64,000 bases of DNA from Candidatus Methylomirabilota bacterium (GTDB taxonomy: Bacteria > Methylomirabilota > Methylomirabilia > Methylomirabilales > CSP1-5). The notes beneath the pieces were generated by a model that saw only the letters and a list, made by a program, of their open reading frames with translations, did not search any database and was not told the origin of the DNA. Shown here piece by piece: positions 6,554 through 63,158 of this stretch (positions are counted from its first letter, which is position 1; the number at the start of each line of letters is the position of its first letter). A program made the translations under genes and the position numbers. The stretch is from NCBI GenBank assembly GCA_027293415.1, contig JAPUFX010000066.1, positions 9,779-73,778 of the forward strand, written 5' to 3'.

Positions 6554-6629
6554 GCTGGCGTAGCTCAGCAGGTAGAGCAGCTGATTTGTAATCAGCGGGT
6601 CGGGGGTTCGAATCCTCTCGCCAGCTCCA
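6554..6629 (+). tRNA. tRNA-Thr (anticodon UGU)
   Basis: Acceptor stem gctggcg/cgccagc, anticodon stem gctga/tcagc with loop tt-TGT-aa, T-loop GGTTCGAATCC, and encoded CCA. Confidence 0.93.
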
Positions 6630-6709
6630 CGGAGGATGGGAGTCGAGAAATGAGCACGGAGAGCGAAGGCTTGCCCATTCGCTCTCCGCTCAGTGCGCTG
6701 GCCGAATGC

Positions 6710-6795
6710 GGGGAGATACCCAAGCGGCCAACGGGGGCAGACTGTAAATCTGCTGGCGCACGCCTACGGGGGTTCGAATCCTCCTCTCCCCACCA
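6710..6795 (+). tRNA. tRNA-Tyr (anticodon GUA)
   Basis: Acceptor stem ggggaga/tctcccc, anticodon loop ct-GTA-aa, a long variable arm, T-loop GGTTCGAATCC, and CCA. Confidence 0.92.
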
Positions 6796-6909
6796 CCATA
6801 TGAATGATTAAGAGGCAGCCCGAGGTTCTCAGGACGAGAGCACCCAAACGGGAAGGGCCATTTGGAGGCTTGAGAGCGCTGTTTCGTTCGGGGTTATACG
6901 CCTTGGGAT

Positions 6910-6984
6910 GCGGGAATAGCTCAGTGGTAGAGCGCGAGCCTTCCAAGCTCGGGGTCGCGGGTTCGAATCCCGTTTCCCGCTCCA
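6910..6984 (+). tRNA. tRNA-Gly (anticodon UCC)
   Basis: Acceptor stem gcgggaa/ttcccgc, anticodon loop ct-TCC-aa, T-loop GGTTCGAATCC, and CCA. Confidence 0.93.
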
Positions 6985-7058
6985 GCCCGTTTCCATCCCG
7001 GAAAAACGACTCACGGACGGCGGGGGCGCACGGGCCTCACCGAGGCACCTCGAGGAGG

Positions 7059-8318
7059 GTGCGTCCTTGGTGTGTGGTTATCAGCGTCGGGTTCCTCTGC
7101 ACGGGGGTTCCGTTGGCCGCCCAGGCGGTTCCGCTGGCCACTCGGGATGTCGCCACGCATAATCAACGAGGGGTGGAACTCAGTGCCAAGGGGGAGCATC
7201 GCGAGGCGATTGCCGAGTTTGAAAGAGCCTTAAGCCTCGCCCCATCCCATCCGGTGGTCCGGCGGAATCTGGCTCATGCGCACGGAAATCGTGCCGCCCT
7301 GCTGCTTCGGGAGCAGGCCTTCCAGGAGGCGGCGGATCAGTACCAGGCGGCGATTGAGCTGTCACCAAAGGAGCAACGATTTTACGTGGGGCTCGGGGTG
7401 GCTTTTCTCGCCCTCCGGGAGATGCCCCAGGCCGTGGAGGTTTTCAGGCAGGCCCGCGATCTCGACCCACAGAATGTAGAAGTCTATCGGTATCTGGGGG
7501 AGACCTATTACCGACAGGGGGATCCCAAGGAGGCAGTGAGGACCTGGGAAGAAGGGCTGAGAATCCGCCCTGGGGATCAGGAGCTCGAACGGCGTATCGC
7601 CCAAGTCGAAGGGGAACGGCAGGTTCACGAAAGGTACGAGCACCAGACCGGGCACCACTTTGCCCTCCGGTACGTGGGTGAGGTTCCCGAAGAGCTGGGT
7701 GGGGAGATCCTCGAGCTACTGGAACAGGCGTACGACGAGGTGGGGTACGACCTGAACCACTATCCCCAGGACACGGTTGAGGTCATTATCTATTCCGATG
7801 CCGACTTTCAACGGGTCACTCATCTGCCGGGATGGGTTTCTGCGGCATTTGAAGAACGGGGGAGTCGGATCCGCATTCCCATCCGGGGGATCAGGCAGGG
7901 CACAGATCTTCGAGCGCTGTTGTACCATGAATACACCCATGTGGTCATTCGGGACGTTACGGGTGGGAAGGTCCCCACCTGGTTGAATGAGGGATTGGCC
8001 CTGATAGAGCAGCGGACTCCTTTGGATGGCGCGGTCGGGACGGTCCGGCAACTGGCGGACGAGAAGAAACTCCCCTCGTTGGGTGCCCTGAATGGCTCCT
8101 TTGTGAAACTCACAGGGCCGGAGGCGAGTGTTGCCTACGCCGTCAGTTATACGGCCGCCAAATTTCTCATCGAGCGGTGGAGCCGCTGGGACGCGCAGCG
8201 ACTCCTTCGACAGCTCGGCGAGGGGTTGCCCTTTGAAGAAGCGCTGGAGGAGACCACTCGACTGACGCTACCGGAGTTCGAGCAAGAATGGCGCGAATGG
8301 CTCGTTAGGGGATATTGA
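7059..8318 (+). CDS. Secreted TPR-repeat protein with C-terminal MA-clan zinc-peptidase-like domain
   Basis: Signal-like segment WCVVISVGFLCTGVPLAAQA, TPR-like repeats, then HEYTH (HExxH) followed by NEGLA. The track ORF start 6804 runs through tRNA-Gly, so the start was moved to in-frame GTG 7059 (alternative 7074). The start is uncertain. Confidence 0.7.
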   Translation: MRPWCVVISVGFLCTGVPLAAQAVPLATRDVATHNQRGVELSAKGEHREAIAEFERALSLAPSHPVVRRNLAHAHGNRAALLLREQAFQEAADQYQAAIELSPKEQRFYVGLGVAFLALREMPQAVEVFRQARDLDPQNVEVYRYLGETYYRQGDPKEAVRTWEEGLRIRPGDQELERRIAQVEGERQVHERYEHQTGHHFALRYVGEVPEELGGEILELLEQAYDEVGYDLNHYPQDTVEVIIYSDADFQRVTHLPGWVSAAFEERGSRIRIPIRGIRQGTDLRALLYHEYTHVVIRDVTGGKVPTWLNEGLALIEQRTPLDGAVGTVRQLADEKKLPSLGALNGSFVKLTGPEASVAYAVSYTAAKFLIERWSRWDAQRLLRQLGEGLPFEEALEETTRLTLPEFEQEWREWLVRGY

Positions 8319-8412
8319 TTAAGGTGGTAATGCTTCAGGAGGAGAGTCAGAGAGAGAGATAAGGGGCCGGCAGTCCGTCTGTAGGAAACGGATCATCCCG
8401 GATCGTTCCGGG

Positions 8413-8488
<76 letters not shown>

Positions 8489-8540
8489 CAACCTTCATTC
8501 ATTCGGATGTGGATGCAGCGGGGAAAGGGGGGCATCACCC

Positions 8541-9722
8541 ATGGCGAAGCAAAAATTCGCGCGGACCAAAGAGCATGTGAACGTTGGAACCATTGGGCAC
8601 ATTGACCACGGCAAGACAACGCTGACGGCGGCCATCACGAAATGTCTGCATGCGCAGAATCCCCAGGTTCAGTTCGTCCCCTTCGACCAGATCGACAAGG
8701 CCCCGGAGGAGAAGGAGCGAGGAATCACCATCGCCATAGCCCATGTGGAGTACGAGACGGCGAAGCGGCACTACGCTCATGTCGACTGTCCAGGGCACGT
8801 GGACTACATCAAGAACATGATCACGGGGGCGGCACAGATGGACGGGGCGATCCTCGTGGTGGCGGCCAATGACGGACCGATGCCCCAGACGCGGGAACAC
8901 ATCCTGCTGGCGCGGCAGGTGAACGTCCCGAGCCTGGTGGTCTTCCTGAACAAGGTGGACATGGTAGATGACCCGGAACTCCTCGAACTCGTCGAGCTGG
9001 AGCTCCAAGAGCTGCTGAGTCATTATGGCTTTCTGGGGGACCAGATCCCGATCGTCAGGGGAAGCGCGCTCAAGGCGTTGGAGACGGGTGAATGTCAGAG
9101 CATCCTCGAGCTCATGGAGGCAGTGGATAGCTACATCCCGCTCCCCGCGCGACCGATCGATAAGCCCTTCCAGATGCCGATCGAGGATGTCTTCACCATC
9201 TCGGGCCGAGGGACTGTGGTGACCGGTCGGATAGAGCGGGGGGTCATCAAGGTGGGAGAAGAGGTCCAGATCGTGGGCATCCGGGAGACCGAGAAGACCG
9301 TGGTGACCGGGGTGGAGATGTTCCGGAAGACCCTGGACCAGGGGCAAGCGGGTGATAACGTGGGTCTGCTTTTGCGGGGGACCAAGCGGGAGGAGGTGGA
9401 GCGGGGGCAAGTAGTGGCCAAGCCCGGCTCGATCACCCCCCACATCAAGTTCCAGGCGGAGTGCTACGTCCTGACCAAGGAGGAGGGGGGACGGCACACT
9501 CCCTTCTTCTCGGGGTACCGGCCCCAGTTTTATTTCCGGACCACGGACGTGACGGGGGTCGCCAGCCTGCCAGAAGGCGTTGAGATGGTGATGCCGGGAG
9601 ACAACGTGCGCCTCAGCATAGAGCTGATCCAGCCGATCGCCCTCGAGAAGGAGCTGCGGTTTGCCATCCGGGAGGGGGGCAAGACCGTAGGCGCGGGCGT
9701 CGTGAGTGAGATGGTCGGGTAG
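8541..9722 (+). CDS. tuf: Elongation factor Tu
   Basis: 393 aa. [14 protein letters not shown] and NKVD GTPase motifs. Confidence 0.98.
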
Positions 9723-9732
9723 CAACCAGGGG

Positions 9733-9801
9733 TCTGCAGCCAGTAGCCAGCTTGGGGATCCAAAAGCTGACTGCCGAAAGCTGATGGCGGACAGCTGCCA
9801 G
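9733..9801. repeat. Heptad inverted repeat, class B (GCTGAYR words)
   Basis: Left arm ctgcagccagtagccagctt, right arm aagctgactgccgaaagctgatggcggacagctgccag. The inner helix is CAGCTT/AAGCTG. Confidence 0.6.
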
Positions 9802-9811
9802 TGAGAAGAAC

Positions 9812-9961
9812 ATGCGAGAGATCATCGCCTTAGGCTGCACGGATTGCAAGCGTCGCAACTATTCGACGACGAAAAATAAGAAAAATACACCGGACCGGCT
9901 GGAGCGGAAGAAATATTGTCGGTGGTGTCGGAAGCACACCACCCACAAAGAAGTCAGGTAG
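9812..9961 (+). CDS. rpmG: 50S ribosomal protein L33 (zinc-ribbon form)
   Basis: Hand-translated 49 aa: [49 protein letters not shown]. Below the ORF-track size cutoff. Confidence 0.9.
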
Positions 9962-10131
9962 CGGTGATGGGGAAATGGTTTCGTCCTTGCGTGCGGAGGG
10001 CTTTTATGGAGGCGACCGGGAGGGCGTCGCCGGTTACGGGGGAGGCAGCCCCCGAAGCCTTTCGCCGAAGGGTGAAAAGGGAGCTTCGCTGAGGGGTGTC
10101 GGAAGGGGGTCCTGCCCCCTCCGAGGAAGGT

Positions 10132-10207
10132 AGGCCAGTAGCTCAATTGGCAGAGCACCGGTCTCCAAAACCGGCGGTTGGGGGTTCAAGTCCCTCCTGG
10201 CCTGCCA
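10132..10207 (+). tRNA. tRNA-Trp (anticodon CCA)
   Basis: Acceptor stem aggccag/ctggcct, anticodon loop ct-CCA-aa, T-loop GGTTCAAGTCC, and CCA. Confidence 0.92.
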
Positions 10208-35866: not shown

Positions 35867-36511
35867 ATGCAAGTCATCCTCCTCGGCCCTCCCGGGGCGG
35901 GCAAGGGGACCCAAGCCAAGATGCTGACCGAGCAATATGGGGTTCCCCAGATCTCCACCGGGGATATCCTGCGGGCCGCTGTGACTGCGGGGACTCCTCT
36001 CGGGAAAGAGGCCAAGACGTACATGGACCGGGGGGCGTTGGTCCCGGACGAGGTCGTGATCGGTATCGTCCGCGACCGCCTGACCGAGTCTGACTGTCAG
36101 GCAGGGTATCTTCTCGACGGTTTTCCCCGGACCGTGGCGCAAGCGGAGGCGCTGACGCGCATGCTGAAAGAGTTGGGGACGTCACTCCCCACCGTAGTGA
36201 GCCTCGACGTAACAGAAGAGGAATTGATCCGCCGCCTCGCCGGACGGCGAACGTGCCAGGCCTGTGGAGAACCCTTTCATGTGGAATTTCATCCTCCTCG
36301 GGTTGGCGGCATTTGTGACAAGTGCAGCGGGAATCTCATCCAACGGGACGATGATCAGGAAGAGACGGTCCGTCGGCGCCTCCAGGTCTATCGCGAGCAG
36401 ACCGAGCCGCTGATCGGGTATTATCAGAGGCAGGGACGGTTGAAGACGGTCAAGGGGCTGGGAGACACGGGAGACATCTTTGCACGGATATCGAGGGTCC
36501 TTGAAGGGTGA
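35867..36511 (+). CDS. adk: Adenylate kinase (zinc-lid type)
   Basis: [11 protein letters not shown]-loop. Lid sequence CQACGEPFH...CDKCSG. Confidence 0.96.
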
Positions 36512-37301
36512 GACGGTCAAACTGCCGCTCCGCAGTCCCATAGAGTACAAAGCACTGTGGGAGGTGGATCGTATAGGTCAGGCCAGCCGGCTCGTTGCCG
36601 AGGCGTTGTTGGCCCTCCGGGAGGAGAGCCAACCCGGGGTGAAGACGGCAGAACTCGATCGTTTTGCCGAGGCCTTTCTCCTCGAACGGGGAGCGCAAGC
36701 TGCCTTCAAGGGATACCGGGGTTATCCGTGTACCGTGTGCACCTCGGTAAACGAAGAGGTAGTGCACGGTCTTCCCTCCGAGCGCAGGCTTCAGGAAGGA
36801 GAGATCGTGAGTTTAGACCTTGGGGCGATTGTGGAAGGGTATTATGGAGATGCGGCGCTGACCGTTCCTGTCGGGGAAATTTCTCCAGAAGCGAGGCGAC
36901 TCCTCGAGGTCACCCGCGAGGCACTGCACCGCGGGATCGCGGCAGCGGTGTCTGGTCAGCACCTGACAGATATCTCCCATGCGATTCAGACTCACGTGGA
37001 GGCTGATGGCTTCTCGGTGGTTCGGATCTTCGTTGGGCATGGAATTGGGCGGGCCCTACACGAAGAGCCTCAAATCCCCAACTTTGGCCCCCCGGGTCGT
37101 GGGCCACTCCTGAAGCCTGGAATGGTTCTGGCCATTGAACCCATGGTGAATGCCGGGACCCACGAGGTGACCATCCTCGAGGATCGATGGACCGCGGTGA
37201 CCCAGGATGGTTCGCTGTCTGCCCACTTTGAGCACACGATTGTCATCACCGAAAAGGGCCCCGAAATTCTCACCCGTTCCGAAACGGGAGAAACTTGGTA
37301 G
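36480..37301 (+). CDS. map: Type I methionine aminopeptidase
   Basis: Conserved metal ligands ([24 protein letters not shown]). The start is uncertain: TTG 36480 or TTG 36501, both overlapping the adk end. Confidence 0.9.
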
Positions 37302-37308
37302 GAGGTCG

Positions 37309-37602
37309 ATGCGCAAGAGGTCCGCTGGACAGCGCAGAAAGAGGTCCGCTGGACAGCGCAAAAAGAAGTCCGCTGGACAAACCCAAAAGAAGGAAGAGGC
37401 GATCGAGGTCGAAGGGACCGTGGTCGAGCCCTTGCCGAACGCCATGTTTCGGGTGGAGTTCGAGACGGGCCACAAAGTGCTGGCCCACATATCGGGGAAG
37501 ATGCGGATGCATTTTATCCGGATCCTCCCGGGGGATAAAGTTATTGTGGAGCTCAGTCCCTACGATCTGAGCCGAGGTCGCATCATTTATCGCCATAAGT
37601 AG
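37309..37602 (+). CDS. infA: Translation initiation factor IF-1 with a repeat-encoded basic N-terminal extension
   Basis: ATG 37309 after AGGAGGT. The conserved core is [68 protein letters not shown]. It is preceded by [28 protein letters not shown]. No in-frame start lies closer to the core. Confidence 0.9.
37315..37386 (+). repeat. 24-bp tandem repeat x3 inside the infA 5' coding region
   Basis: Copy 1: aagaggtccgctggacagcgcaga. Copy 2: aagaggtccgctggacagcgcaaa. Copy 3: aagaagtccgctggacaaacccaa. Confidence 0.9.
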
Positions 37603-37604
37603 TT

Positions 37605-37677
37605 GTCGGCTGTCAGCAGTCCGCAGTCAGCTTTGACCCGCGATAGTAATTGCTGACAGCTGATGGTTGACAGCAGG
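37605..37677. repeat. Heptad inverted repeat, class B
   Basis: Left arm GTCGGCT GTCAGCA GTCCGCA GTCAGCT. Right arm GCTGACA GCTGATG GTTGACA GCAGG, running into the rpmJ SD AGGAGG. Confidence 0.8.
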
Positions 37678-44217: not shown

Positions 44218-44280
44218 GTCTAAGGTCCAACGTCCAAGGTCCAACGGTACGGCACCATGTAACATAGACGTTGGACCTTT
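44218..44280. repeat. Heptad inverted repeat, class C
   Basis: Left arm GTCTAAG GTCCAAC GTCCAAG GTCCAAC GGT. Right arm GACGTTGGACCTTT. Confidence 0.78.
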
Positions 44281-63044: not shown

Positions 63045-63047
63045 TAA

Positions 63048-63158
63048 GTTCACGGTTCAGAGTTCAGAGTTGAGAGTGCAGAGTGCAGAGTTCAGGGAAA
63101 GGATAACACCTTTTTTTTGCTGTTTCAGCGCTGAACCCTGAACCATGAACCCTGAACG
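63048..63158. repeat. Heptad inverted repeat, class A (largest copy)
   Basis: Left arm GTTCACG GTTCAGA GTTCAGA GTTGAGA GTGCAGA GTGCAGA GTTCAGG. The centre contains a T8 run. Right arm GCTGAAC CCTGAAC CATGAAC CCTGAAC. Confidence 0.85.

Follow-up and report, generated by a model that had tools for sequence, protein, structure and literature searches.

A basic N-terminal tail, encoded by tandem 24-bp repeats, on the putative product of a Methylomirabilota gene for initiation factor IF-1

Bacterial initiation factor IF-1 is usually described as a bare oligonucleotide/oligosaccharide-binding (OB) fold, with tails treated as archaeal or eukaryotic additions. The infA gene on contig JAPUFX010000066.1 of a Candidatus Methylomirabilota bacterium (GCA_027293415.1), a relative of methane oxidisers in the NC10/Methylomirabilales group, does not fit this description, since its open reading frame (ORF; 37309-37602, + strand, 97 aa) places 25-27 extra N-terminal residues, encoded by three tandem repeats, before the canonical IF-1 body. 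All coordinates refer to the window, by which we mean the whole stretch of 64,000 nt that was analysed (contig positions 9,779-73,778, forward strand). Is this extra segment a translated part of the factor, how was it built, and what might it do? Our leaning, at somewhat better than even chances, is that it forms a translated, disordered, RNA-attracting arm on the factor of the 30S A site.

The identity of the gene is plain. TIGR00008 scores 123 bits (cut-off 61.15), with profile positions 1-69 of 69 aligned to aa 28-96; PF01176 covers aa 32-95 at 101 bits, against a cut-off of 30.2; and residues 28-96 align without a gap to residues 3-71 of E. coli IF1. The IF-1 body, comprising the OB fold and the stop codon, occupies 37387-37602 (+ strand), as placed by these three matches together with AlphaFold2 and Foldseek. 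The start codon lies 35 codons before the G of the E-G-[TR]-V motif, where 10-11 are usual, so that the product exceeds the usual 71-73 aa; a length of about 71-73 aa is a typical, not a defining, feature of IF-1. The gene order, taken from the ORF list and the gene calls of relatives, is secY-adk-map-infA-rpmJ-rpsM-rpsK-rpsD-rpoA, the canonical end of the spc/alpha ribosomal-protein cluster, and no second infA copy is present in the 64-kb window. This infA is the organism's ordinary IF-1 gene in its ordinary place, plus an N-terminal appendage.

In the appendage, ATG CGC precedes three head-to-tail 24-bp units on the + strand, spanning 37315-37386. Unit 1 (37315-37338, AAGAGGTCCGCTGGACAGCGCAGA) encodes KRSAGQRR; unit 2 (37339-37362, AAGAGGTCCGCTGGACAGCGCAAA) encodes KRSAGQRK and ends CAAA; unit 3 (37363-37386, AAGAAGTCCGCTGGACAAACCCAA) encodes KKSAGQTQ and, being common to 2-unit and 1-unit relatives, is taken as the oldest. 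The codons AAG AAG GAA GAG GCG ATC GAG GTC GAA GGG follow. Units 1 and 2 differ at 1/24 nt, units 2 and 3 at 5/24, and units 1 and 3 at 6/24. A first, sequence-only reading of this DNA had described three units with the first two of these distances, and both the letters and Tandem Repeats Finder bear it out: the program reports a 24-bp period over 37315-37379 (2.7 copies, 95% match, score 116), or 3.2 copies at 78% when extended to 37392. With a unit length divisible by 3 and three copies, the array is an in-frame coding tandem repeat, whose 8-codon consensus is K-[KR]-x-x-G-Q-x-[KRQ]. It is the sole high-scoring tandem repeat of the window, and the unit was matched in 0 of 100 shuffles. A search for the unit elsewhere in the 64 kb gave 0 matches, and a dispersed or mobile repeat is ruled out, as the unit is found at no other window position. 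Other, smaller tandem repeats in the window are AGTTCAG x 7 (63047-63095, score 63) and a 14-bp unit in 2.1 copies (44218-44246, score 51).

The composition of the encoded segment is one-sided. Its first 28 residues hold 13 K/R and no D/E, whereas the IF-1 core has 10 of each and is net neutral; the calculated isoelectric point is 10.8 with the tail and ~9.2 without it. The earlier description of a Lys/Arg-rich extension ahead of the conserved core stands, TIGR00008 covering just aa 28-96. An AlphaFold2 model, built from a 47-sequence family alignment and used just for the order/disorder boundary and the match of the OB core, leaves aa 1-31 without secondary structure, with a mean predicted local distance difference test (pLDDT) score of 48-49 over aa 1-30. 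The OB fold starts at aa 32 and has five strands within aa 32-93. Foldseek aligns the core alone to solved bacterial IF-1 over 66-70 columns, at a root-mean-square deviation of 1.7-2.3 Å and with E-values down to 1e-9. Every match to the solved bacterial IF-1 sequences (71-87 aa) begins at query residues 26-28, and none covers the tail. The tail is predicted from this model to be intrinsically disordered.

How the array was built can be followed among relatives, the closest of which, by homology search, are labelled Methylomirabilales or candidate division NC10. Alignment of infA from related genomes for copy-number variation, which the sequence-only reading had put forward as a check, was run and yields relatives with 0, 1, 2 and 3 units. 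Products of 97 aa carry three units, with an N-terminus that varies at one position, [RP]; those of 89 aa carry two, including a more diverged form, MRRKRAGQAKKKEQGQTTKKEE; those of 80/81 aa carry one (MAKKNTGQTKKEE, MGKKDAGPTKKKEE); those of 96 aa carry three diverged units (MAKRRGGQRRKTRRGQTKKTGQEQTKKEE); and those of 72 aa, the canonical length, carry none. Identity to the window in the flanking DNA is 96.6-97.0% (over ~3 kb) for the 2-unit relatives L085-L087, 96-98% for the other 3-unit relatives and 75-85% for the 1-unit, 96-aa and diverged 2-unit classes. In neighbour-joining trees from both flanks, with the 1-unit form as outgroup, the 3-unit relatives are monophyletic and the 2-unit lineage is their sister. 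Because a ~97%-identical 2-unit lineage is the sister of the 3-unit clade, we infer one recent duplication from two units to three. The parsimonious account, drawn from these sequences, is that the first 24-bp unit was duplicated once, in tandem and in frame, in the ancestor of a species-level clade, which gave the third copy, and the differences of 1-3 nt between units 1 and 2 among clade members fit the age of such an event. The recent duplication proposed from the window alone is thus backed by the sister lineage, with the amendment that it is common to a species-level clade and not private to this genome. The simplest history overall would be 1 to 2 units long ago, followed by 2 to 3. In addition, the fifth base covaries between units 1 and 2 (37319 and 37343): both have G in the window, encoding KR in each, and both have A in L109/L111, encoding KK. 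Such joint change is a hint that the two young units evolve in concert or undergo gene conversion, although parallel mutation could also explain it.

Short tandem repeats can mis-assemble, and the window comes from a metagenome-type genome, so that the three copies might be thought to reflect a repeat collapsed or expanded by the assembler, a danger already raised by the sequence-only reading. However, 38 indexed blocks of a public assembly collection contain the exact 97-aa protein, tail DNA identical to that of the window occurs in three Logan assemblies (different runs) as well as in GCA_023644445.1 and GCA_041931505.1, related 3-unit haplotypes carry substitutions of their own inside the units, and the 72-bp array is shorter than a sequencing read. 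The identical DNA in independent assemblies excludes an artefact for practical purposes, the chance left to it being vanishingly small.

Whether the units are translated turns on the start codon. The upstream gene, map (methionine aminopeptidase, Peptidase_M24; 36480-37301, + strand), is placed by the ORF list, and the genes of relatives at this position match PF00557. Its stop codon, TAG at 37299-37301, is overlapped by a Shine-Dalgarno (SD)-like AGGAGGT (37300-37306, + strand), which falls 2-3 nt short of the infA start, ATG 37309-37311 (+ strand). The next in-frame ATG, GTG or TTG after 37309 is the GTG within the core motif GTVVE. That this ATG, with AGGAGGT before it, is the sole in-frame start with an SD upstream of the core had been read from the sequence at the outset and is confirmed, with the addition that the spacer after AGGAGG is short, at 3 nt.

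The junction between map and infA was compared across 15 distinct haplotypes. Twelve of the loci were gathered blind to the upstream frame: a metagenome scan with a core DNA pattern gave eight, and a 66-aa gene call at NCBI led to the other four. The gap from the map stop to the ATG is 6-8 nt in 15/15 haplotypes, and the distances from the ATG to the GAAGAGGCGATC anchor, 33, 36, 60, 81 and 84 nt, are all divisible by 3. Like canonical IF-1, the 1-unit and 96-aa products open with MAK. From the fixed ATG behind the map stop, the lengths divisible by 3 and the retained MAK, ATG 37309 appears to be the ancestral IF-1 start (M-A/R-K). These comparisons indicate that the tail was inserted and expanded between codon 3 and KEEAIE, not gained by recruiting an upstream start, and that it is very probably translated as part of IF-1. 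The AGGAGGT is identical in all 2-unit and 3-unit relatives, and the 1-unit and 96-aa relatives have no SD there. That relatives without an SD keep the 6-8 nt spacing suggests coupling by termination and reinitiation. Translation would then begin at ATG 37309, probably through coupling to the termination of map 7 nt before it, with the newly acquired AGGAGGT helping infA translation in this clade.

A different start is found in part of the public record. In four NCBI NC10 metagenome-assembled genome (MAG) records, GCA_041931505.1, GCA_036445175.1, GCA_036475795.1 and GCA_036445295.1 (loci L108-L111), the same or near-identical DNA is annotated with a 66-aa protein, MEVEGTVVE... (P0128). The called start is ATC, Ile32 of the window's ORF (37402-37404, + strand), and the gene runs 1501-1701 (1346-1546 in L111), with the SD, the ATG and the three units in frame upstream. 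Under the 66-aa call, ~100 nt that hold AGGAGGT, ATG and all three in-frame units are marked as intergenic. The JGI, Logan and ENA collections, which use other gene callers, give 97 aa. Because the pipelines disagree on the start, the tail is partly hidden in NCBI protein records.

If translation did start at this non-canonical ATC beside the core, the repeats would be an untranslated leader between map and infA. Besides the four NCBI calls, a purine-rich AAGGAAGAGG precedes the ATC, the tail lacks purifying selection at the codon level, and non-AUG initiation has a precedent among initiation factors, in that IF-3 genes use the start AUU. Against this, a 66-aa product would lose KKEEA, corresponding to TIGR00008 profile positions 1-4 and E. 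coli residues 3-6, and would be shorter than every solved IF-1 sequence (all at least 71 aa). The same codons, AAG GAA GAG GCG ATC, are coding in 72-aa relatives that start MAKEEAIE. The ATG fixed past the map stop in every haplotype, the five leader lengths in multiples of 3, the perfect AGGAGGT before the ATG in this clade and the 97-aa calls of the JGI, Logan and ENA gene callers also speak for the upstream start. A non-canonical start next to the core, which the sequence-only reading had named as a threat to its account, is a matter of annotation in four MAGs; as a biological start we consider it improbable, from KKEEA, the fixed ATG and the lengths in multiples of 3.

The tail and the core have evolved differently. 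Non-synonymous and synonymous differences per site (pN and pS) are about equal in the tail, against a ratio of ~0.1-0.3 in the core, and the pooled counts, non-synonymous to synonymous, are 10:3 for the tail and 7:28 for the core (Fisher p = 5e-4). Selection at the codon level was tried as a test of translation and set aside, because at pN ~ pS a relaxed coding sequence cannot be told from a non-coding one. By these comparisons, the tail appears to change fast at the residue level, yet its frame and basic composition are kept. A separate pattern is seen in the 96-aa class (L094, L100, L102 and L106), where the synonymous sites of tail codons 2-26 are less diverged than those of the core. Between L094 and L102, synonymous differences number 0 over ~17 sites in the tail and 17 over ~50 sites in the core (Fisher p = 0.004), and the pattern is absent in the window's clade. 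Codon- or RNA-level constraint near the start, or recombination, are possible reasons.

Basic extensions of IF-1 also occur well outside this lineage. A scan of genomes by peptide pattern, saturated with motifs universal to IF-1, gave a sample of 80 species-representative IF-1 loci across many phyla, in which the closest relatives of the window's gene were not among the matches listed. In most of these loci a start codon precedes the G of EG[TR]V by 10-11 codons, and a few have obligatory extensions. One of these is MARRRRGGQRPDRRKKKADRAAATATPKEEAIE in Vulcanimicrobiota (L073, L080), with an in-frame TAG directly before the ATG in L073; some Actinomycetota (L005, L044, L067) have shorter basic tails of the MAKNKEKA... 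type; and one other Methylomirabilota genome in the sample also has an obligatory extension. Among the best 120 matches to a query of the Vulcanimicrobiota type (P0093, P0138-P0254), most products are 95-100 aa (range 89-126). Their common tail, MAR[KR]RGGR.P.R.K...KAAKTATPKEE, is ~24 aa long, basic and not tandemly repeated. The MAGs that carry the MAR[KR]RGGR tail are labelled in some cases Eremiobacteraeota (Eremiobacterota/Vulcanimicrobiota) and in others Ca. Acidoferrales/Acidiferrales (Acidobacteriota by NCBI taxonomy). Full-text searches of the literature found no paper describing the Eremiobacterota/Acidobacteriota IF-1 tails, which is not proof of absence. Judged from these sequences, basic N-tails have evolved repeatedly on IF-1, with good conservation in one case. 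This recurrence and conservation raise the odds that such tails are useful.

What such a tail might do can be framed from the geometry of the factor. It would leave the OB fold where the tail of eIF1A does, because the OB fold and the A-site position are common to both. From there an electrostatic arm could contact 16S rRNA, mRNA or the anticodon region of the initiator tRNA, and this contact might strengthen binding to the 30S or make initiation complexes more stable. Unit number would then govern how far the arm reaches and how much charge it carries (about +5, +8 and +13), and would not form a specific motif. Given translation, we put a selected role in RNA or ribosome contact at even chances, by analogy. 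A more ambitious version holds that independent eIF1A-like arms, gained by duplication in Methylomirabilales and otherwise in Eremiobacterota/Acidobacteriota, reach from the A site to the mRNA and anticodon and alter complex stability or start-site stringency, with unit number as the tuning element. In that full form the proposal is speculative and, on present analogy, unlikely to hold.

Several observations weigh against a translated, disordered, RNA-attracting arm. At the start, AGGAGG (37300-37305) stops just 3 nt before the ATG, a short spacer; some relatives have no SD upstream of the ATG at all; the argument from in-frame indels is weakened, since a 24-bp unit is in frame by default; and the NCBI pipeline chose ATC 37402. 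The mostly non-synonymous tail substitutions are what would be expected of neutral or even non-coding sequence. The AlphaFold2 model has a mean pLDDT of 61 overall, which is low confidence. Tail-less Methylomirabilota genomes exist (L004, L056), and the tail is therefore dispensable within the phylum. Finally, the tail adds just ~5 bits to an alignment with eIF1A (from 11.3 to 16.8), a gain that is compositional.

Some of these points would be met by a tail that is translated yet neutral, a product of slippage expansion of the purine-rich 24-bp unit, tolerated since the IF-1 N-terminus faces away from essential contacts. The contrast in pN and pS between tail and core fits this, as do the 0-3 copies within one phylum, the step between 2 and 3 copies at ~97% flank identity, the free drift of the unit's residue sequence and the predicted disorder. 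Neutrality accounts less readily for a basic, acid-free composition kept across classes with 75-85% flank identity, for several sublineages that keep and lengthen their tails with no loss, and for independent basic tails of similar length conserved on IF-1 of other phyla. Moreover, the homologous position in eIF1A bears a functional basic tail (PMC5756025). On balance we regard a purely neutral tail as rather unlikely, and continue to favour, with the reserve expressed above, an arm that attracts RNA.

It is also conceivable that the repeats act as RNA, their purine-rich, SD-like AAGAGGT motifs serving as a translation enhancer or ribosome standby site for infA, with the peptide as a by-product. 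The AAGAGGT with which the units begin has a single mismatch to the AGGAGGT upstream; in the 96-aa class, AGAGGAGGAAAGAGGAG follows the ATG immediately and no SD lies upstream; and the reduced synonymous divergence of the 96-aa tails (L094 vs L102, p = 0.004) would suit such a role. That effect is, however, absent in the window's own clade, purine-rich codons are automatic when K, R, G and E are encoded, and no start codon lies at a usable distance 3' of the internal SD-like motifs. Folding of 37270-37420 gave no signal of RNA structure in the repeat region and is unremarkable at z = -0.94. A role at the RNA level is accordingly very improbable, and the arm remains the reading that we carry forward.

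The surroundings of infA are otherwise ordinary. Downstream, rpmJ (ribosomal protein L36; 37686-37799, + strand) is identified from the sequence and its translation in the ORF list, and the genes of relatives at this position match PF00444. No internal promoter-like site was found between map and infA. The spacer between infA and rpmJ (37602-37674) holds a ~73-nt long imperfect hairpin (GUUGUCGGCUGUCAGC...GCUGACAGCUGAUGGUUGACAGC), which ends just 5' of the AGGAGG and GTG start of rpmJ. Its minimum free energy is -37.8 kcal/mol over the 105 nt folded, weakly better than shuffles (z = -1.8), and it could be an mRNA processing or stability element. In L094 (GCA_044240405.1), of the 96-aa class, the region 3' of infA (2346-2555) holds an opposite-strand HicB-like antitoxin and a large unannotated ORF, not rpmJ-rpsM-rpsK; this is either a chimeric contig or a break in a synteny that is invariant elsewhere. 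Upstream of the ribosomal-protein region, a tRNA cluster at 6554-10207 comprises Thr(TGT)-Tyr-Gly(TCC), followed by Thr(GGT) and Trp(CCA), an ordinary context of the tuf/secE-nusG type. An Rfam scan of the window returned five tRNAs, each far from infA, and no other match.

The interest of the locus lies in a bacterial IF-1 whose tail matches that of eIF1A in length, charge character and homologous position, and whose stepwise build-up through 0, 1, 2 and 3 units is still visible in living relatives. If it is true that the tail contacts mRNA, tRNA or rRNA, these bacteria would offer a natural test bed for basic tails on A-site factors, and an instance of convergence between domains. A neutral tail would instead be a clean case of slippage-driven, low-complexity growth tolerated in a highly conserved bacterial gene. 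Either prospect is tempered in that basic low-complexity tails are common on RNA-binding proteins, constraint is weak here and some members of the phylum have no tail. Full-text searches of the literature found no paper on a bacterial IF-1 N-terminal tail or on Methylomirabilis IF-1, although this does not prove absence.

Set against known systems, the window's IF-1 is closest to canonical bacterial IF-1 (E. coli, 72 aa, PDB 1AH9; T. thermophilus on the 30S, PDB 1HR0), with which it shares family, OB fold and the operon position map-infA-rpmJ, and which lacks the 25-27 K/R-rich, repeat-encoded N-terminal residues. The IF-1 of Eremiobacterota/Acidobacteriota (95-100 aa) likewise has an obligatory basic N-tail of ~24 aa and no start codon near the core, but that tail is unrelated in sequence, has no repeats and is much more uniform in length. 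A broader parallel is found in the basic extensions of ribosomal proteins and in histone tails, also K/R-rich unstructured termini on a conserved nucleic-acid-binding fold and thought to work by electrostatic contacts with RNA or DNA (review PMC11764897). Those tails are usually ancient and positionally conserved, whereas the IF-1 tail is young, is built of repeats whose number varies, and belongs to an initiation factor.

The most instructive comparison is with eIF1A. IF1 and eIF1A are homologues at the same A-site position, and eIF1A has in addition a helical subdomain and disordered tails at both its N- and C-termini (PMC6122471); in aIF1A the basic N-tail is shortened (PMC6412873). The basic tail residues K7, K10, R13, R14 and K16 of yeast eIF1A contact mRNA at +4 to +6, the anticodon and 18S rRNA, and stabilise the closed complex (PMC5756025). 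The same OB fold carries, in both proteins, a disordered basic N-terminal tail of nearly equal length: phmmer aligns aa 6-95 of the window's IF-1 with aa 8-94 (of 144) of human eIF1A, a sequence checked against PDB chains, and each protein has its first OB strand at residue 38. It is with three units that the N-terminal length equals that of eIF1A. By Foldseek, the OB core superposes on the OB domains of eIF1A and aIF1A at 1.7-2.0 Å. Homology of the tails themselves was rejected, the extra ~5 bits being compositional. The protein also scores far below eIF1A/aIF1A membership, at 28.3 bits for TIGR00523 (cut-off 102.9) and 16-22 bits for the aIF-1A models (cut-offs 91-130). It has neither the helical subdomain nor the acidic C-terminal tail of eIF1A, and ends ...GRIIYRHK right after the last OB strand. 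Its tail has no conserved equivalent of the G8-G9 and R13-type motifs, is variable in copy number, weakly constrained by position and secondary in origin, inside one bacterial order. The likeness to eIF1A is best read as an analogy and not as family membership: a homologous fold, at a homologous position, that appears to have been given a basic tail of its own.

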